This document shows positions 26,001 to 33,781 of a stretch of DNA of 64,000 bases, in pieces. The position numbers were made by a program, and so were the translations under genes. The DNA comes from Candidatus Poribacteria bacterium (GTDB taxonomy: Bacteria; Poribacteria; WGA-4E; PCPOR2b). The first letter of the stretch is position 1. Each line of letters opens with the position of its first letter. The stretch is from the NCBI GenBank assembly GCA_965215015.1, contig OZ244042.1:3488001-3552000 (forward strand), given 5' to 3'. The notes under the pieces were generated by a model that was not told where the DNA came from, did no database searches, and was given only the letters and a program-made list of their open reading frames with translations.

Positions 26001-27073
26001 CCTTTTTCACCGACAGCGATTGCCCGATTCCCATCAGCAAACTGTATCTCCTCAAGGTTGTTGGCGGTAGTACCGCTAGCTATTGTCCACGTCTCCCCGC
26101 CATCTTCTGAGTGCATGATTGTGCCGTGCCAACCTACCGCCCACGCCTCGCTTGGGGTGGTGAACTGAACCCCGGTCAGATTATTTTCGGTACCGCTCTC
26201 TAGCAATCGCCAGTTATCTCCTCCGTCCTCTGTGAACGTGATGAAACCGATATCAGCAACAGCGACGCCGCGTTGGTTGTCCACAAAATGGATACTGTTG
26301 ACAGTGTCCCGAACATGCCCATTAATCAGTGGGATGCGGCTATCCTGACGCGTCCATTCGGCACCCCCATTTGTTGTGTGGAAGATTGATCCGTCAGTCC
26401 CGACAAGCCAACCCTCGTTTTGGCTGATGAAGAAGACCCGCTTGTTATCGTTGATCATCCGGTCGCGTTCGCCCTGGTAACGGTTACTCTGCTGCCGCCA
26501 CGTTTTGCCACCGTCCTCTGTGAAGAGAATCCGATCGTTTGCGCCGACAGTCCAACCGCGGCGTTTGCTAACAAACCAGATGCCGCTGAGTGGAAAATCG
26601 CTGATGTATTCATACTGTTCCCACGTTTTCCCGCCGTTCTTTGTGTACAATACATCGGCATCCTCTCCGACGATCCACCCCTCATCGGAATTTGCAAAGT
26701 GGACATCCCTGAGCATTGCTAAGGTGCCGCTGTCCTGGAGATGCCAGTGGCGTCCGCCGTCATCGGTGGTAGCGATTAACCCCTTATCGCCGACCGCCCA
26801 ACCGTAACGGGGATTGGTGAAATAGACCGCCTTGAAATCACCTTCCGTTTCAGTTTCTTGGCGTTCCCACGTTTTTCCACCATCGTTTGTATGGATGATG
26901 ATTCCCTTTTCGCCGACGATCCATCCGCGTTCGGCATCTGCGAAGTGCAAATCTGTGAAATTGGCTTCCCAATCTGCTTTACGGGTCACGTCTTGCCTAC
27001 AACCGATGAGTATGGTTATGAGTGCGAAAGCAAGTGTTGTCCCTCGGAATATATGTTGGTATGTCTGTTTCAT
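23015..27073 (-). CDS. Large YCF48/BNR (Asp-box) beta-propeller repeat lipoprotein, about 1352 aa
   Basis: RBS AAGGAGG then ATG 27073; lipobox LIGC; more than 20 GWxVG..G.I.HT.DGG.TW repeats. Confidence 0.88.
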   Translation of the reverse strand: MKQTYQHIFRGTTLAFALITILIGCRQDVTRKADWEANFTDLHFADAERGWIVGEKGIIIHTNDGGKTWERQETETEGDFKAVYFTNPRYGWAVGDKGLIATTDDGGRHWHLQDSGTLAMLRDVHFANSDEGWIVGEDADVLYTKNGGKTWEQYEYISDFPLSGIWFVSKRRGWTVGANDRILFTEDGGKTWRQQSNRYQGERDRMINDNKRVFFISQNEGWLVGTDGSIFHTTNGGAEWTRQDSRIPLINGHVRDTVNSIHFVDNQRGVAVADIGFITFTEDGGDNWRLLESGTENNLTGVQFTTPSEAWAVGWHGTIMHSEDGGETWTIASGTTANNLEEIQFADGNRAIAVGEKGTIAVTQDGGQTWTEVQTDIWDNIRSLYFVSDLEGWAVGDRGMIVHTADGGQSWETQKSGWWYSLRGTYFVSPKKGWVVGDLGTVLHTADGGESWVQQTPGEFHMLKEVFFLNDKEGWSVGWPGIVIHTANGGLTWTQQKTPTYNELYAIYFIDNKTGWVTGQFGEILHTKDGGKTWKFQWSGTEANLNKVYFADAKHGLIVGDDGVILTTTNGGTKWEPQESDTENDLYGFALSPEGMVAVGKGGIAMRYSVDAEELPAELPPMAERTQTTETIEEPPTVEEVTYHWEIVRQATWQTDFADTYFHRTADEPATLRGWAVGSGGVIAHTTDGGKTWMPQHSGVKDNLHRITFVDEDHGWIAGNGVLLRTENGGQTWQVIKKVVQNFRRIGAMQFINTQEGWLGADQGQTLHTTDGGVTWKRQKTGTTNQPITALHFINSTEGWAVTPQRVEGGLILHTVNGGDYWEIQDKTHQPAAAVHFADAKSGWIVGRDGKSLITQDGGITWQQLFPEIAVEGLRRIKFYDHQRAWGINRNGAILVTSDQGESWLPTYVGLETMAELIAQSKQADMEAEADKPQEPQPAISNPLDENFADIFQRDLSEQRSRAGRFTPEGEIETDTEDTASIQTDTKAEDQEKPIARRRRGWRQSGLPITNVHFVGDQHAWAVGDAGHIYYTENGGQTWERQLGEQLDDFRAILFLDSTHGWITGDNGLLLETQDGGQTWKPVKSGTEQPLVGIHFADVSGLNADESEGTTRWGWSMRRDGTVLYTTNGVKWSAGQTPTRPGLFEEDPPLPFAISDVAFGDFSEGWAVGRDGQIIHNQDGGPIWTPQRTSTGKDLERVEMKFAPLGWAVGHSGIVQRTINGGGYWKHHETDTGYNLYGVSFITKRKGWAAGDYGLILRTTGGGFKWEALSSGVTEALYGILALSDREIYVVGASGTILRSMDGGTTWEREHTDISNNLYTIVRSPNDDTLWIVGQWGVVLRRKSDSEKMSMR

Positions 27074-27812
27074 TTGATTTTTCCTCCTTGAAAGTGTCAT
27101 AACGCTCTCAGAAACACGGAAAGCCCGATATCCAGTGGCATGCCAAATCGGCTTGAGTCCATCGTAACTCGACGGTTGAGCGGAGAACGATGGTGAAAAC
27201 GCTTCCCAAAATTCTCGATTCTTTGGACGTAACAGCTTCCTAAATGTTGAAGTGATCAATCCGTTTCTATCTTAATCTTACAAAGTATAACATAACCGGG
27301 CCCTAAACCCTATATCAAAATTTGCTGAACGGGAGTGTTTGTCCGATCGTTCGGCTAGAAATTGCAAAGTAGGTCAAGGTTCCTCGATGAAACGTCAGGC
27401 ATTACCTCCAGCGGTTTACCTGTTTTCTCATCTACTCGCTTGGGTATTTATATGATTCATCGGTATTCTTCTGTTCCTGTTGGATTTGACATTCCAACGA
27501 GTGTGAGGCAGTTGGAGGGACCTGCCTTTTTGCTTGCATTCCAACAATGAGTGTGCTAGGATGAACACACTATCCTTGGCGAAGTGATACAAGTTGTGCA
27601 CATCTCATTGAGAAACGTTCTCAGACTGGATTTACAGGGCTTAAAATTGGTGGGATTGATGATGGGGTTGAGAATCTTTAAGTATTGATAATAACCGATA
27701 GCATATAGAATCAGAATCGCAGCAGCGTCGGCATGCGTCGCTGGTAGAACGGATTAAATACCGAAAGGCGAGGAGACAATATGCGTTTTTTCGTGAACTC
27801 AGGCTTCGGTTC

Positions 27813-28073
27813 TTGATGGTTTCGTTATGTGAGTCTTTATGTGAGTCTTTCAAAACAGATTATGACATGCGCGCCAAAGCCTTGTGTTATTGTGCTGTAT
27901 GTTGTGACGAGCTATGCTACAATGAGCGTGCCGAATGTTATTTTGAGAAAGCAGAAGAAAGTGGTTTTGTCAATGACCCCCAACCTCATTACTTAGGAGC
28001 AATAGTTCAAAAGTCGGAAGATCTCAAAAAACGGGTTATAGAAAAACTTGGTATTACTGAAGATCCTGAGTAA
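27813..28073 (+). CDS. Small Cys-rich hypothetical protein or gene remnant
   Basis: ORF only; internal 12-bp duplication; no recognisable family. Confidence 0.3.
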   Translation: MMVSLCESLCESFKTDYDMRAKALCYCAVCCDELCYNERAECYFEKAEESGFVNDPQPHYLGAIVQKSEDLKKRVIEKLGITEDPE

Positions 28074-28302
28074 ACCGCAACAACAACGAGCGGGAGGGAT
28101 TATGAACGAATTGATGATTCAAGATGGGGGAACGTTGGCAATAAGGGGTAATAATAAAATCAGAATATTGGTAATATGGTGATGCGTTGCTGGTGGAGAT
28201 GCAGGTCGTTGGCAGGTGGAAATCCTCATAGATGCCTGCCCACTATGCCAAAGCAGAGTTGGCGGAACGGAGCGCAATGGACCGGTTTAGGGCCGGAAAG
28301 AG

Positions 28303-28653
28303 GTGATAATTTTGGATTTATACCTGCTTATGGGGGTTGGTGGTATCGCTTGGAGTGGTTCAATCAGGATTTCTGAATCCTATTCAAATCCTCCTACTGT
28401 TTCTCCTTTGGAATGTCCGCCTTGGGCAGGTCGTCCAACGGGCGTAAAGTTTATAACGATATTTAATATCGCTATGATTGTTTTACCCTTCCTGAACGGA
28501 TATATCTTGGGTGGTGTGCTAGGCATGTTCATTAGCATTGCTGGCACGTGGGTGGTTATGAAACTTGTTCGACATTTTTTCACTTACAGGTTTGAATACG
28601 CTATCCGAGTGTTTTTTTTTTGGTTCGCCGTATGTAATCTGGACTTTGGTTAA
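28303..28653 (+). CDS. Hypothetical membrane protein
   Basis: Hydrophobic ORF. Confidence 0.4.
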   Translation: MIILDLYLLMGVGGIAWSGSIRISESYSNPPTVSPLECPPWAGRPTGVKFITIFNIAMIVLPFLNGYILGGVLGMFISIAGTWVVMKLVRHFFTYRFEYAIRVFFFWFAVCNLDFG

Positions 28654-28702
28654 TTTGGGTCGGCTTTAGTTGACTAATCCTAAAAGTGAAAGTGTGCGTA
28701 AC

Positions 28703-28834
28703 ATCATGGGGCATGAAAACGCTGGTTGGGTTGAGGCGGTTGGTACTGGTGTGAAATCGGTGAAACCCGGTGACGATCAAACTGCACCTTCCAACCTACT
28801 GGTGTGCACCCAACTTCTCCTATATGATGGCTGA
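28703..28834 (+). pseudogene. Remnant of a Zn-dependent (MDR) alcohol dehydrogenase
   Basis: IMGHENAGWVEAVGTGVKSVKPGD matches the GHExxGxVxxxGxxV signature; no N-terminus and an early stop. Confidence 0.7.
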
Positions 28835-29104
28835 GGATACCCACCGTGAACTTTTGACGGTTCGAGGAATCCACGAGTCACGGTTCGTTGGAAAGATCAT
28901 TTCGCTGCGAGGGCAATTGAGGGGGGTGTGAACGCTGGCAAATCCTTCTCAGAGGCTTTTCCGGATGAAGTATCTGAAAACCTGTGTCAACTCAGCGATC
29001 TCTTCCAGGATGAAATTAGTGTCAAACTTGCTGAGGGCGCATAAAACCGCAGTGCAATCGGCAACCGTGCAACATCAACTTGACCATTGTTGCGAGGAAC
29101 GCCT

Positions 29105-30214
29105 ATGATCGCGGCGCATACCGATGTCGTTGGAAGTTTGCTCCGTCCGCCTGAACTGCTCAAAGCGAGGAACGAGATTGCCGCGGGCAAAATGACGCCA
29201 GCGGCGTTCAAGGCTATCGAAGATCAAGCAGTTGATAAAGCTGTCGCCCTTCAGGAAGGGGTGGGCTTGGAGGTCGTTACCGATGGTGAAATGCGTCGGT
29301 TATCTTTCCAGAGCCAGATGACAGAAGCGGTCGCCGGTTTCGGTAAATATAACCTCAATGCCTTCCTCTGGGGTGATTGGCGCGGCGACGGAGGTGCGGG
29401 GAGCTTGAGTATAGAACGCCCCAAGGGTTTGGGTGTTGTCGGCAAGCTCAACCGCAAGCGTCATCTTTCAGGGGAAGAGTTCACCTACCTGCGAGCGCGG
29501 ACGACTCGCATACCGAAGATTACGTTGCCTAGTCCCAGCATGTGGACAAACTTCTGGTCGTCAGAGCACTCTCCGCCCGCCTATCCTACGCTCGAGAGTT
29601 TTCTTGTGGATGTCGTTGACCTTATACGGGGCGAGGTCGCCGAGTTGGTCCGACTGGGTGCAACCTACATTCAGCTGGATGCTCCCCATTATCCGTTGCT
29701 ACTCGATCCTAAGACTAGAGCTTTCTACGAAAGACAAGGCTGGGGGCTTGATCAGTGGCTGGACCGAGGCGTTGAGATGGACAACGCTGTGATTGGCGAT
29801 TTTTCAGATGTGACGTTTGGCTTTCACCTCTGACGCGGCAATCAGAGCAGCCGGTGGTTGGTCGAAGGAGGTTATGAGCTGATAGCCAAACCGATTTTCC
29901 AAGGCATCCGGGCCCAGCGTCTACTGCTTGAATACGATGACGAACGCTCCGGTTCATTTGAACCGTTGAAGGAGATTCCTGATGACAAGATTGTCGTTTT
30001 AGGGTTGGTTACGACGAAAACGCCACGCCGAGAAACGCCGGAAGCACTCACCGCACGCGTTAAGGAAGCCAGCCAATTTGTGCCGATAGAACGGCTTGCA
30101 TTGAGTCCACAGTGTGGCTTTTCAACTTCGGTTGTTGGCAATCGCATTACAGTAGAAGACCAGAGGCATAAGTTGTCGGTGGTTGTTGAGACTGCTAGAA
30201 GGGTGTGGGGCTAA
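29105..30214 (+). CDS. Cobalamin-independent methionine synthase II family (MetE C-terminal domain-like) protein; putative selenoprotein with Sec243 (TGA 29831-29833), 369 aa
   Basis: VVGSLLRP, VTDGEMRR, YIQLDAP, GFHL-[TGA]-RGN at the conserved HxC zinc ligand, LLLEYD, LSPQCGF; ORFs 29087..29833 and 29858..30214 are in the same frame. Confidence 0.88.
29834..29863 (+). promoter_or_regulatory. Putative bacterial SECIS of the MetE-like gene
   Basis: GA-G-CAGCC-(GGT)-GGTTG-G-TC hairpin; loop begins 19 nt after TGA and starts with G. Confidence 0.55.
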
Positions 30215-30222
30215 ACTGGGGA

Positions 30223-30314
30223 GACTCATGTTAAAGGAAAGTGTAAAACGCTAAGAGCTCCCAAGTTTTTCCGAAAAAATTCGGGAGCTGTTGCACGATT
30301 TCTTAACATGAGCC
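30223..30314 (+). mobile_element. Family A MITE-like element
   Basis: Aligns with 15277-15367 and 36010-36100. Confidence 0.7.
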
Positions 30315-30414
30315 ACTGGAGAAAACAGACAAGGTACACCTAGCATCAGATTAAATGGTGCTTTTTGAAGCGTACATTAAAAAACATGAATACGAGTTCA
30401 ATTGGAGGAAGGAT

Positions 30415-30621
30415 ATGGCGCAAACTCCTAAAAACCATCAAACCCGAACTGAATCTATTGGGAAATGGACAATTCGGATTAGATCTTACCAACTCGGTGA
30501 TGTGTATATCTGTACTGTAGACAATGTGAGCCCCGGTGCCGTCATTGCTCGATCTACGGCTGCAGCCCGCGCGGAGGCAGAATCCGAGGCGTTGGCGCAA
30601 GCGAAAGCCGCGATGGCATAA
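30415..30621 (+). CDS. Small hypothetical protein (68 aa) in the selenium cluster
   Basis: GGAGG/AGGA RBS then ATG 30415; SYQLGDVYICTVDNVSPGAVIAR. Confidence 0.7.
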   Translation: MAQTPKNHQTRTESIGKWTIRIRSYQLGDVYICTVDNVSPGAVIARSTAAARAEAESEALAQAKAAMA

Positions 30622-30745
30622 TCGCGTTATACGAAATTGGCTCATGGAAAAAGAAAGTGCAAAGCGCAAAGAGAAGCCGAGCCTTGCCGAAAAAACTCGG
30701 TTTTTGGTGTCTTTGTAGAAAGTAAGAAAAGTTGGGAGCGATAGG

Positions 30746-31807
30746 ATGAACCTAAATAAGTTGTCACGAAAACACACCCTCACAAGTCTGGCAAAAACAT
30801 GCGGGTGAGCGGCGAAGGTCAGTCCAGTTGGACTAGGAGAACTCTTGGCAAAATTGCCGAAGAAAAAGGACCCGAATCTGCTCGTTGGATTTGAAACGAG
30901 CGACGATGCCGGCATCTACCGCCTCGATGATGAAATGGCACTGGTTACGACCGCCGATTTTATCACGCCGCCGGTGGATGACCCGTATCTGTTTGGTCAG
31001 ATTGCTGCAGCCAATTCAATCAGTGATATTTATGCAATGGGCGGCAGACCTGTGACCTGTCTGAATCTGGTGGGGTTTCCGGCGGATAAATTGGGTCCAG
31101 AAATCCTGCACGGAATTGTCGAAGGCGCGTTGAGCAAAATCACCGAAGCCGGCGCAGTCTTGGCGGGCGGGCATACGACCGACGATGAGGAGCCCAAGTT
31201 TGGGTTATCGGTCACTGGGATTGTGCATCCGGAAAAATATTGGCGAAATGTCGGTGCGGAACCGGGGGATGTACTGATCTTGACCAAACCGATTGGCAGC
31301 GGCGTGATTTTTAACGCCAATCTGAAAAACTGGGTGTCAGACCAAGCGTTAGACGAATGTATACAGACTCTCACGATGCTCAACAAGCAGGCGGCGTCGG
31401 TTATGGCTGACTTTGACATCCATGCGGTAACGGACATCACCGGATTCGGATTGGGTGGGCATGCATTGGAAATGGCGGAAGGGTCGGTTGTGACTTTGGA
31501 AATTCACACCGACGCCGTGCCGATTATGCGCGAGGCACTAGAGATGTACCAAAAAGGGATGCGGACCGGTGTCAACGCCGCCAATCGAGCCTTGATTGAA
31601 GATTCCGCACGTTTTGAAAAATCGCTCCCTCCATGGCATGAGGAAATCTTCGTTGATCCGCAGACCAGCGGTGGATTGCTGATGTCTGTGCCGGCTGCTC
31701 AAAGCGAATCGCTGTTGACGGTTCTACACAATGGGGGTGTGGCAAAAGCACAGGTTATTGGAGTTGTGAAGTCCTTTGTCGAACCGAACTATCTTGTTTT
31801 TGTATAA
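30746..31807 (+). CDS. selD: Selenide, water dikinase (selenophosphate synthetase), selenocysteine-containing (Sec21, TGA 30806-30808), 353 aa
   Basis: ATG 30746 in frame: MNLNKLSRKHTLTSLAKTCG-U-AAKVSP...; SDDAG, TADFITP, GGHT, LTKPIG, TDITGFGL, DPQTSGGLL. Confidence 0.95.
30809..30834 (+). promoter_or_regulatory. Putative bacterial SECIS of selD
   Basis: AGTCC-(AGTT)-GGACT hairpin; loop 17 nt after TGA with GT at loop positions 2-3. Confidence 0.65.
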
Positions 31808-31810
31808 ACT

Positions 31811-32761
31811 ATGAAAATCTGCTTAATTACCCCCGCCCCGACATACTCTCGGAAGGGCAACCGCGTGACAGCCCTGCGTTGGGCTCATATCTTACGAGAA
31901 CTAGGCCACCGCGTCATTATCGTTCAAGAATATCAAGGAGAGCGATGCGACCTGTTAGTCGCGCTCCACGCGCGCCGCAGCCACGCTTCTATTGCGCGTT
32001 TCCGCGTTGAACATCCAGAGCTGCCTCTCATCCTTGCCCTGACCGGAACAGACCTCTACGGTGATATTCATACGGACGCCTCCGCCCAGGAATCTCTGGA
32101 GATGGCGGATCGTTTTATTCTTTTGCAACCCGCAGGCGTTGAAGAACTCTCCGAGCATCTGCGTGACAAAGCGTGGGTAATCTATCAATCAATAACGGCA
32201 CCACCGGGTAAATTTTCTCCAAAAAAAAACGTTTTTGAGTTGTGAGTGCTGGGGCATCTGCGTCCCGTGAAGGACCCATTTCGCACTGCGATAGCAGCCC
32301 GAGGGCTGCCTCCATCATCCCAGATTCAGGTAGTGCATGTTGGGGGTGCACTCACCAACGACATGAAAACCGAGGCAGATGCTGAAGCAGCCACCAATCC
32401 ACGTTACCGTTGGTTGGGTGAACTCCCACGCTGGCGGGCCCTCCGCGTCCTCGCACGGAGTCGGGTTCTCGTGCTGACCTCGCGAATGGAGGGAGGGGCG
32501 AATGTGGTTTCCGAGGCAATAGCGTGTTCCGTTCCCGTCATTTCGTCGCGGATATCTGGCTCGATCGGTCTCTTGGGAGAGGATTATCCGGGCTACTTCC
32601 CGGTAGGAGAGACACAGGCGTTGACGGAGCTGCTCATACGTGTTGAGACGGATACCGCTTTTTATAACACACTCAAAGCATGGTGCGAAAGATTAAAGCC
32701 GATTGTTAATCCTGACCGTGAACGTCAGAGTTGGAAACGTCTGCTGAAGGACTTACAGTAA
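31811..32761 (+). CDS. senB: SenB-like selenosugar synthase (GT-B glycosyltransferase, TIGR04348-like); putative selenoprotein with Sec145 (TGA 32243-32245), 316 aa
   Basis: GNRVTALRW, ALHARRS, LTGTDLY, FEL-[TGA]-VLGHLRPVKDP, SRMEGGANVVSEA, GLLGEDYPGYFPVG; starts 3 bp after selD; the two listed ORFs are contiguous and in frame. Confidence 0.85.
32246..32287 (+). promoter_or_regulatory. Putative bacterial SECIS of the senB-like gene
   Basis: GTCC-(CGTGAA)-GGAC hairpin with loop 20 nt after TGA and GT at loop positions 2-3; possible outer GTGC/GCAC stem. Confidence 0.55.
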
Positions 32762-32809
32762 ACCTTTAGGGGGGATAATGTTCAATCTATTGGATCGGTG
32801 GAGACAGGT

Positions 32810-33781
32810 ATGAAAAAGGTTAGCGTTGTGGGTGCCGGTGCGTGGGGAACTGCGCTCGCTGTTACGGCGGCGCGTGCCAGTAGCGAAGTCACCTTATGGG
32901 CGCGTGAGCCGGAGGTTGTGGCATCTATCAACGAACAACAGGAAAATAAAATGTTCCTTCCCGGTATCAAGCTGCCCGACACTATCCATGCGGTCAACGA
33001 TTTAGGTGCGATGCTGGCGCAGGATGCTCTGTTGATGGTAGTGCCTGCCCAATATGTGCGGGGCACCTGTGAGCAGCTGGCTTCAGCCGGTTTGGAGGCC
33101 TCTCGCCCCATAGTTATTTGCAGCAAGGGGATAGAACAACAGCACTTGAAACTGATGAGCGAAGTTGTGGCAGAGCACTTCCCCAATCCGCTGGCGATAC
33201 TCAGCGGACCCACCTTTGCGGTGGAGGTGGCAAGAGGATTGCCCGCTTCGGTGACACTTGCATGTGGAAACCTAGAGCTTGGGCGAAAACTAGCACGGTT
33301 GGTAACGCACCCAAAATTCAGCGTCTATCATTCCGACGATGTGGTAGGCCCCCAAATCTGTGGTGCCATGAAAAATGTCATTGCCATCGCTTGCGGTATT
33401 GTCGAAGGCAAAGGGCTCGGAGAAGGTGCGAAAGCCGCGTTAATCGCCGAAGGTTTGGCGGAGATAAGCCAACTATGTGTTGCCAAAGGCGGCAAACCTG
33501 AAACAGCGATGGGACTATGCGGTCTTGGGGACCTAATCCTGACTTGTAACAGTCATACTTCGCGCAATATGTCTTTGGGTTACGCATTGGGACAGGGGAA
33601 AACTTTGGAGGAGATTTTGTGTGAACGAAAAAGCGTTGCCGAAGGTGTTGCATCGTCCAACGCTGTGGCGGGCTTAGCAGTCCAATTGGGTATTCGGTTG
33701 CGGATCTGTGGGATTATTGATCAGATTGTGCGGGGCGATGCAGATGGAGATCAGATGCTCTTGGAACTTGTTCAGGGCTGA
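32810..33781 (+). CDS. gpsA: NAD(P)H-dependent glycerol-3-phosphate dehydrogenase
   Basis: GAGAWGTALA, CSKGIE, LSGPTFA, KNVIAIACG, GLGDLILTC, SRN. Confidence 0.93.
   Translation: MKKVSVVGAGAWGTALAVTAARASSEVTLWAREPEVVASINEQQENKMFLPGIKLPDTIHAVNDLGAMLAQDALLMVVPAQYVRGTCEQLASAGLEASRPIVICSKGIEQQHLKLMSEVVAEHFPNPLAILSGPTFAVEVARGLPASVTLACGNLELGRKLARLVTHPKFSVYHSDDVVGPQICGAMKNVIAIACGIVEGKGLGEGAKAALIAEGLAEISQLCVAKGGKPETAMGLCGLGDLILTCNSHTSRNMSLGYALGQGKTLEEILCERKSVAEGVASSNAVAGLAVQLGIRLRICGIIDQIVRGDADGDQMLLELVQG

Follow-up and report, generated by a model that had tools for sequence, protein, structure and literature searches.

The question raised by this locus is what selD and senB, two genes for the formation of a selenosugar, produce next to a gene of the methionine synthase (MetE) type when no gene for SenA, which forms the C-Se bond of selenoneine, lies close by. 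The genes are part of a 64-kb stretch of DNA (positions 3,488,001 to 3,552,000 of contig OZ244042.1), in the following called the window, from the genome of an uncultured, sponge-associated Candidatus Poribacteria bacterium (G000; a single contig, C1, of 5.94 Mb). It had originally been predicted that, with no SenA gene in the window, the MetE-fold enzyme may take its place and alkylate or methylate the selenosugar made by SenB, or another selenol, giving a new selenometabolite other than selenoneine. Our analysis leads to a different answer, namely that the locus quite likely provides the selenium activation for a normal selenoneine pathway whose other half is encoded elsewhere, with three of its four genes being selenoprotein genes and the MetE-like protein an accessory. 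The features of the locus are the following, with selenocysteine (Sec) assigned to the in-frame TGA codons, and with SECIS standing for selenocysteine insertion sequence and ORF for open reading frame:

29105-30214, + strand: MetE-like gene of the "methionine synthase II family", single domain, 369 aa, putative Sec codon 243 (TGA 29831-29833) in the zinc-ligand motif H241-x-U243
29848-29860, + strand: SECIS-like hairpin of the MetE-like gene, 5-bp stem CAGCC/GGUUG, loop GGU
30415-30621, + strand: small ORF between the MetE-like gene and selD, 68 aa from the Met codon at 30415 (alternative start at 30355)
30746-31807, + strand: selD (selenide, water dikinase; SenC role), putative Sec codon 21 (TGA 30806-30808)
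30821-30834, + strand: SECIS-like hairpin of selD, stem AGUCC/GGACU, loop AGUU
31811-32761, + strand: senB (selenosugar synthase, TIGR04348), putative Sec codon 145 (TGA 32243-32245)
32262-32275, + strand: SECIS-like hairpin of senB, stem GUCC/GGAC, loop CGUGAA

Gene content of the locus and the whereabouts of senA

All four genes are co-oriented on the + strand and, as had been described in the original prediction, each of the three larger ones contains exactly one in-frame TGA (at 29831, 30806 and 32243) beyond which the reading frame stays open. The identities given there for SelD and SenB also hold. SelD matches TIGR00476 with 375 bits (cut-off 125) and is the only protein of the whole genome above that cut-off, while SenB, which starts 3 nt past the selD stop, reaches 405.4 bits with TIGR04348 (cut-off 300) and aligns with the solved structures 8jjn and 8fbx with an E-value of 1e-55.

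The earlier statement that no SenA/EgtB gene can be found is correct for the window, but not for the genome. When searched with the EgtB model, the complete genome yielded a single full-length match (C1:3302603-3303856), and this match is SenA, as it scores 516.6 bits with NF041186 (cut-off 420; C1:3302573-3303859). It is directly followed by a gene for EgtD (TIGR03438, 365.8 bits, cut-off 290.9), and the resulting senA-egtD locus (C1:3302573-3304939) lies outside the window, ~215 kb upstream of the genes described above. All genes of the selenoneine pathway are hence present in G000. Among 41 related genomes, the 31 with SenA are also the 31 with SenB (related genomes are labelled G and fetched loci L, each with a number). 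Since SenA and EgtD are encoded elsewhere in the genome and since SenA and SenB co-occur, the window is best understood as containing half of an ordinary, split selenoneine pathway.

The arrangement in two loci, with MetE-like gene, selD and senB at one place and senA at another, is shared by G000 and all of its 19 congeners. In a genome of another genus (G022), the genes follow each other on one strand in the order egtD, ABC (ATP-binding cassette) ATPase, OpuAC-permease, a frame of 156 aa without family, MetE-like gene with Sec codon, senA, small ORF, selD and senB, and the first three of them overlap by 4 nt. A contiguous senA-selD-senB cluster without MetE-like gene is present in G024, G027 and G030.

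In the pathway as we propose it for G000, SelD (Sec21) would provide selenophosphate both for Sec-tRNA synthesis and for SenB (Sec145), which would convert it into the 1-selenosugar, and the products of the distant locus would supply hercynine (EgtD) and form the C-Se bond (SenA) to yield selenoneine. SelA, SelB and tRNA-Sec would read the three UGA codons as Sec by means of the hairpins 17-20 nt downstream. The MetE-like protein, with Sec243 in place of a zinc-ligand Cys, would serve as an accessory that regenerates methionine and S-adenosylmethionine (SAM) for EgtD and would not replace SenA.

Behind egtD, G000 also encodes an ABC ATPase and a fused OpuAC-permease of the betaine type (C1:3304980-3307383), which are 61% and 47% identical, respectively, to their counterparts in the G022 operon. 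Such a transporter travels with egtD and senA at C1:3304980-3307383 as well as at L090:7196-9510, and OpuAC-permease or ABC genes are also located behind senA in L150 and L140. The architecture of an ATPase together with an OpuAC-permease presumably resembles that of the ergothioneine transporter EgtUV, and we regard the system as a candidate transporter of hercynine or selenoneine.

When compared with the senA-senB-senC cluster of Variovorax paradoxus, as far as it is presented in the available part of the corresponding preprint (Kayrouz et al.; 10.1101/2022.04.13.486033), the system of G000 is similar in that SelD/SenC, SenB and SenA score above the curated cut-offs, selD and senB are adjacent (3-nt gap) and EgtD is present. 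It differs in that the genes are divided between two loci 215 kb apart, in that SelD, the only one of the genome, and SenB are putative selenoproteins, in that a Sec-type MetE-like gene and a small ORF are attached, and in that a betaine-type ABC transporter follows egtD.

Probable selenocysteine codons and the machinery to read them

The genes needed for Sec incorporation were found side by side in G000, as selA (609.8 bits), selB (371 bits) and selC, the gene of tRNA-Sec (76.5 bits), are adjacent at C1:4763111-4766642. Also the expectation that the TGA codons recur across genomes was borne out, and those of the MetE-like gene and senB were seen to pair with Cys in homologues. For the MetE-like gene, an orthologue is present in 23 of the 176 genomes of the phylum and all 23 carry the TGA, which occupies the identical codon in each of the 22 orthologues fetched from related genomes. 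Position 243 is Cys in all 12 sampled full-length homologues from other phyla (72-77% identity), where it belongs to an invariant FHLCRGNQ motif, and it aligns with the Cys of the HxC motif in 1ypx. As a separate observation, the MetE-like orthologue at L053 (genome G005) has two in-frame TGA codons and not one.

Sec-containing SelD is a classic selenoprotein, and Cys forms of SelD exist. The TGA of selD is found in 41 of 41 related genomes, at the identical codon in all 25 loci that were read. Codon 145 of senB is more variable, being TGA in 6, TGT or TGC in 22 and TCA (Ser) in 1 of 29 genes, and one in-frame TGA is present in 10 of the 45 senB genes found among the 176 genomes of the phylum.

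TGC or TGT was also looked for in place of TGA in assembled contigs. Contigs from runs X1, X5 and X6, which stem from three studies (P1, P2 and P3), keep TGA at 29831 and 32243, so that a sequencing error can be excluded at these two positions. The contig of X6 shows only two base differences from the window nearby. This check covers the codons of the MetE-like gene and senB, as the selD TGA at 30806 falls outside the listed pieces of X5 and is thinly covered in X6. Run X7 spans the stretch with 63 differences and was counted neither for nor against the TGA codons. Taken together, Sec is very likely inserted at all three UGA codons, as far as this can be judged from sequence comparison.

Hairpins downstream of the TGA codons

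Each TGA is followed by a small hairpin at the place where it had been predicted. Counted from the U of the UGA codon, the stems are formed by positions 18-22/26-30 (MetE-like gene), 16-20/25-29 (selD) and 20-23/30-33 (senB), the loops start 19, 17 and 20 nt after the UGA, respectively, and a G is found within the first two loop bases.

The stem of the MetE-like hairpin, CAGCC/GGYUG, is encoded by conserved Ser-Arg-Trp-Leu codons. The full stem is present in all 17 Sec forms compared with 10 of 30 Cys forms. The middle base of the loop is at the same time the wobble position of the Arg codon, and 16 of the 17 Sec forms have G here, while the Arg codon is CGC in 25 of the 30 Cys forms. A pattern that leaves this wobble position open retrieved 80 metagenomic Sec-form loci, of which 69 have G, 11 have T and none has C or A there. 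In senB, the 17-mer that contains the hairpin is identical in all six TGA forms, representing five genera, and present in 5 of 23 Cys or Ser forms. The loop of the selD hairpin is changed to GGUC in G027 and G030, and in G020, whose SelD is divergent, the stem at this site is of another sequence. A scan of positions 26500-33500 against Rfam (E <= 1) gave nothing but a chance snoRNA match below threshold.

The hairpins presumably resemble the in-frame SECIS of the fdhF type of E. coli in having a small loop with G/U that is located 17-20 nt past the UGA, and the genes agree with that type also in the pairing of Sec and Cys in homologues and the presence of selA, selB and selC. In contrast to the fdhF type, the stems measure only 4-5 bp and their sequence is for the most part set by conserved codons.

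The MetE-like protein

The MetE-like protein matches PF01717 (Meth_synt_2) with 58 bits (cut-off 21), and its best solved relative is 1ypx from Listeria, to which it aligns over the full length (E 5e-51). It scores below the cut-offs of two NCBIfam families, namely PRK06520 (235 versus 313 bits) and PRK06233 (225 versus 576 bits), and thus belongs to a separate subgroup. The protein covers only the C-terminal half of MetE and has no N-terminal folate-binding barrel. With 369 aa and without this barrel it is consequently not MetE proper.

In MetE of Thermotoga maritima, the available part of the structural report (PMC539065) names His618, Cys620, Glu642 and Cys704 as zinc ligands, Ser411, Glu462 and Asp577 as homocysteine contacts, and a disulfide that joins the two Cys ligands in zinc-free crystals. 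Relative to chain 1xpg_A, the numbering of which is shifted by 32, residues S11, E62 and D192 of the MetE-like protein align with Ser411, Glu462 and Asp577. These three residues as well as H241, C243 and C337 are invariant among 13 sequences, with Sec at position 243 in the protein of the window. E276 within LEYDDERSG matches the LEYDNERSG of 1ypx and is the putative equivalent of Glu642. As the pocket that receives the amino-acid moiety of homocysteine is preserved, homocysteine or selenohomocysteine is favoured as acceptor, and a selenosugar or the betaine selenoneine is disfavoured. The protein is hence most likely a zinc-dependent methyltransferase of homocysteine (or selenohomocysteine) and not a selenosugar alkylase, as judged from the residues that it retains. 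The Sec ligand may protect the zinc site from oxidative inactivation. EgtD consumes three molecules of SAM per hercynine, and it is conceivable, although we would stop just short of calling it probable, that the MetE-like enzyme regenerates methionine and SAM in support of EgtD.

The protein resembles the single-domain proteins of the 1YPX type (PRK06520, PRK06233) in the full-length match, the HxC...E...C zinc motif, the Ser, Glu and Asp residues for homocysteine binding and the missing folate-binding N-terminal barrel, but differs from them by Sec in place of the first zinc-ligand Cys and by scores under both NCBIfam cut-offs. With the core methionine synthases MesA-MesD, as described in the accessible part of Price et al. 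2021 (PMC7857596), it shares the single MetE-type barrel, the zinc and homocysteine sites and the absence of a folate domain, and a methyl donor other than methylfolate would be expected in both cases. In contrast to these, it has no established membership in any of the four families, and the same part of that paper has no mention of YxjG, YxjH, 1YPX or Listeria. No gene for a corrinoid protein or a MesX-like partner was seen adjoining the MetE-like gene at this locus.

As an observation apart from this, the MetH of G000 is encoded in four separate pieces (homocysteine, pterin, B12 and activation modules; C1:381126-390464 and 525191-526048), which suggests a split MetH system.

Competing explanations

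How likely is it, then, that the MetE-fold enzyme acts in place of SenA on the selenosugar or another selenol and that a product other than selenoneine is formed? From our point of view, this is extremely unlikely. The idea draws on the absence of SenA from the 64-kb window, outside of which lies the only full-length EgtB-type match, on the linkage of the MetE-like gene to selD-senB in every one of the 20 genomes that represent the genus, so that the predicted synteny is indeed kept in relatives, and on the notion that a zinc site of the MetE type is in principle able to activate a selenol. However, G000 possesses SenA and EgtD, and so does every relative with SenB. The MetE-like gene is moreover found directly beside senA, and not instead of it, in G022, in L100, where it directly precedes senA, and in the metagenomic loci L140, L150 and L190, where it stands between egtD and senA with gaps of ~40-90 nt. 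The contacts to the alpha-amino and alpha-carboxyl groups of homocysteine are made by residues that do not vary. Of 30 loci from Betaproteobacteria, Dehalococcoidia, Actinomycetota and Gammaproteobacteria with a Cys-form homologue (56-72% identity), none has selD, senA, senB or egtD within the flanking DNA that was fetched (up to 10 kb). This indicates that the basic function of the MetE-like protein is independent of selenoneine.

This leads to another explanation, according to which the MetE-like selenoprotein is a housekeeping enzyme of the methionine synthase type that has no functional tie to selenoneine and resides beside selD by descent within one family or because selenoprotein genes cluster near sel genes. 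We consider it possible, albeit doubtful. In its favour, the neighbourhoods are heterogeneous in 75 of the 80 metagenomic Sec-form loci (TauE in five, Haem_oxygenas_2/TENA in five, MttB in one, and others), leaving sen or egtD genes in five of the 80 (4 of the 23 loci with flanks of 1.2 kb or more on each side); the dehalococcoidial genome G177 has the Sec-type MetE-like gene, and neither SenA nor SenB was found in it; the Sec-type orthologue is missing in 9 of the 31 relatives that have SenA and SenB, and lies on a separate contig in G020; and the 21 Poribacteria genomes with linkage represent one family and are therefore not independent. What speaks against it is the position of the gene between egtD and senA in the three metagenomic contigs and next to senA in L100, given that the sen-linked MetE-like genes from outside the Poribacteria belong to a clade apart from the Poribacteria clade (FastTree, 100 sequences), as well as the lack of egtD- or senA-type neighbours in all 30 Cys-form loci. 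The sen genes further stand beside the Sec-type MetE-like gene in 14 of 15 Poribacteria loci examined, and this gene comes after egtD in L168 and is separated by 5.6 kb from senB-senA in L200. That SenB was not found in G176, the genome of L100, is no evidence of absence, as the assembly is fragmented. The tie of the MetE-like gene to selenoneine is hence recurrent but loose.

The heterogeneous neighbourhoods, the nine relatives, G020 and G177 at the same time weigh against our preferred reading of the locus as half of a selenoneine pathway with a MetE-like accessory, and so do several further points. Sec insertion is itself deduced and not observed. Folding of the single sequences is no better than that of shuffled ones (z = -0.45 for the MetE-like gene, -1.40 for selD and -0.17 for senB) and the stem of the senB hairpin comprises 4 bp only, so that by themselves the hairpins are weak evidence, whereas the comparative evidence is strong. 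G000 harbours other candidates for methionine synthesis, namely the MetH pieces and two MetE-like paralogues, which is why a dedicated methionine synthase is not obviously needed. Lastly, the SenB of Variovorax has Val at the position of U145 and many residues occur there in the family, which means that Sec at this position is not required for catalysis. A more far-reaching version of the preferred reading, namely a selenoneine regulon that includes a dedicated Sec-zinc MetE-like enzyme to sustain methionine and SAM (or selenomethionine) under oxidative or selenium-rich conditions, that is translationally switched on only when selenium is available, as SelD, SenB and this enzyme would all need Sec, and in which Sec145 handles selenium by the selenophosphate site, seems rather unlikely to us.

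The senB gene raises a question of its own, since its TGA could also be a recent nonsense mutation that turned the gene into a pseudogene. Among the 20 genomes of the genus, TGA at codon 145 is unique to G000, the other 19 species having TGT or TGC, from which TGA arises by one base change, and position 145 tolerates many residues. Nevertheless, we judge this explanation to be very improbable. TGA occurs at the same codon in five other genomes from four other genera, 10 of the 45 senB genes of the phylum have one in-frame TGA, and the 171 codons past the TGA of G000 are intact and 84-91% identical to those of the congeners. The hairpin 17-mer of G000 is that of all Sec forms, and the contigs of three studies, one of them with the two nearby differences, keep the TGA. 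In the SenB tree, Sec forms are found on several deep branches, and the tree does not resolve the placement of G000 at the base of its genus. This pattern would be consistent with retention, i.e., with an ancient Sec state that was lost to Cys several times.

Position 145 of SenB

Nine residues past U145, SenB has K154 as the aligned counterpart of K158 in the Variovorax enzyme, a residue for which cleavage of the Se-P bond has been proposed in the accessible part of the respective study (PMC10891094). Among 150 representatives of the SenB family, position 145 is occupied by Cys (74), Ala (22), Leu (17), Val (15), Ser (7), Thr (7), Gly (3) and Ile (2). A Cys partner for Sec145 was not found, as there is no covariation with C239 or C46 in these 150 sequences.

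Relation to published work and implications

The selenoneine pathway and Sec-containing SelD are already known. Neither a Sec-containing SenB nor a Sec-containing MetE-like protein is mentioned in the available portions of a 2026 review on prokaryotic selenoproteins (PMC13188914), in those of the main text of the BSepDB paper (PMC13326102), where the BSepDB data could hold them, or in those of the Kayrouz preprint cited above, where the supplementary tables of genes co-localised with selD could do so, and wider literature searches did not find them either. Within the literature searched, Sec-containing SenB and Sec-containing MetE-like protein therefore constitute two undescribed selenoprotein variants, and the arrangement of egtD, Sec-type MetE-like gene and senA is recurrent.

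Since gene callers split all three genes, the capacity for selenoneine formation and the two putative selenoenzyme variants have been overlooked in sponge symbionts as well as in over 100 metagenomic contigs. For metalloenzyme chemistry, a methyl-transfer enzyme in which Sec naturally serves as a zinc ligand would be of value as a study object, and the repeated placement of the MetE-like gene between egtD and senA connects the methyl cycle with selenoneine synthesis in a way that can be tested. In SenB, Sec stands at a position that is Val in the studied enzyme, and one may ask what advantage it brings there. The present case further demonstrates that claims of a missing senA call for a check of the whole genome.

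Other neighbours of the MetE-like genes

Genes of other families were found next to Sec-type MetE-like genes in metagenomic loci. Permease genes of the TauE/SafE family occur in five of them (L161, L163, L164, L193 and L212) and Haem_oxygenas_2/TENA-like genes in another five (L134, L136, L154, L170 and L175), and these neighbours may reflect alternative functional contexts of the family. In L165, a methyltransferase gene of the MttB family (trimethylamine type; L165:5879-6505) adjoins the MetE-like gene, which hints at a quaternary amine as methyl source in some lineages. ORF fragments of group-1 glycosyltransferases (GT4-like) are located beside Sec-type MetE-like genes at L143:2122-2658, L177:5596-6567 and L184:133-636, and the two adjacent fragments of L177 might be one gene split by a stop. 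A tblastn search with SenB (1e-10) gave no match to the fragments of these three loci.

Small ORF, repeats and flanking DNA

The small ORF is conserved at the same place in 20 Poribacteria loci (tblastn matches of 74-92% identity), and an invariant core resembling YxCTVDNVSPGAVIAR is common to 15 protein clusters of 68-75 aa. It matches no Pfam or NCBIfam family, and only unnamed look-alike clusters at 0.92 were obtained from a protein atlas. The AlphaFold2 (AF2) model has a mean predicted local distance difference test score (pLDDT) of 87.7 and consists of four strands and one helix; a Foldseek search of this model against the PDB gave no match at E <= 0.001.

Dispersed short repeats flank the small ORF at 30215-30320 and 30630-30712. 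A core of ~25 nt of the first has ~94 matches in the genome and a core of ~30 nt of the second has ~22, and contig depth reaches 183-381x at these repeats, with many loose ends. Both repeats hold hairpins, of which the second resembles a terminator, and a terminator-like hairpin is located at 30686-30701 between the small ORF and selD. The scans for promoters (9 promoter-like sites versus 5.5 +/- 2.5 in shuffled sequences) and terminators (8 terminator-like sites versus 6.3 +/- 2.6) were not above shuffles, and we therefore do not claim operon boundaries.

The flanking genes are unrelated to the system, with a BNR-repeat protein encoded upstream on the opposite strand and GpsA and a MutL-family protein encoded downstream. 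Directly upstream of the MetE-like gene, the 1.8 kb from 27260 to 29104 consist of decayed coding DNA without a long ORF, in which 24 residues of a Zn-alcohol dehydrogenase (28703-28774) and two pieces, both frameshifted, of a gene with an FeS_assembly_P domain (28770-29005) can still be recognised. A possible RNA at 28771-29004 was rejected, as it corresponds to the decayed gene fragments. In the congeners, intact Zn-alcohol dehydrogenase, FeS_assembly_P and Amidohydro_2 genes are found upstream of the MetE-like gene.

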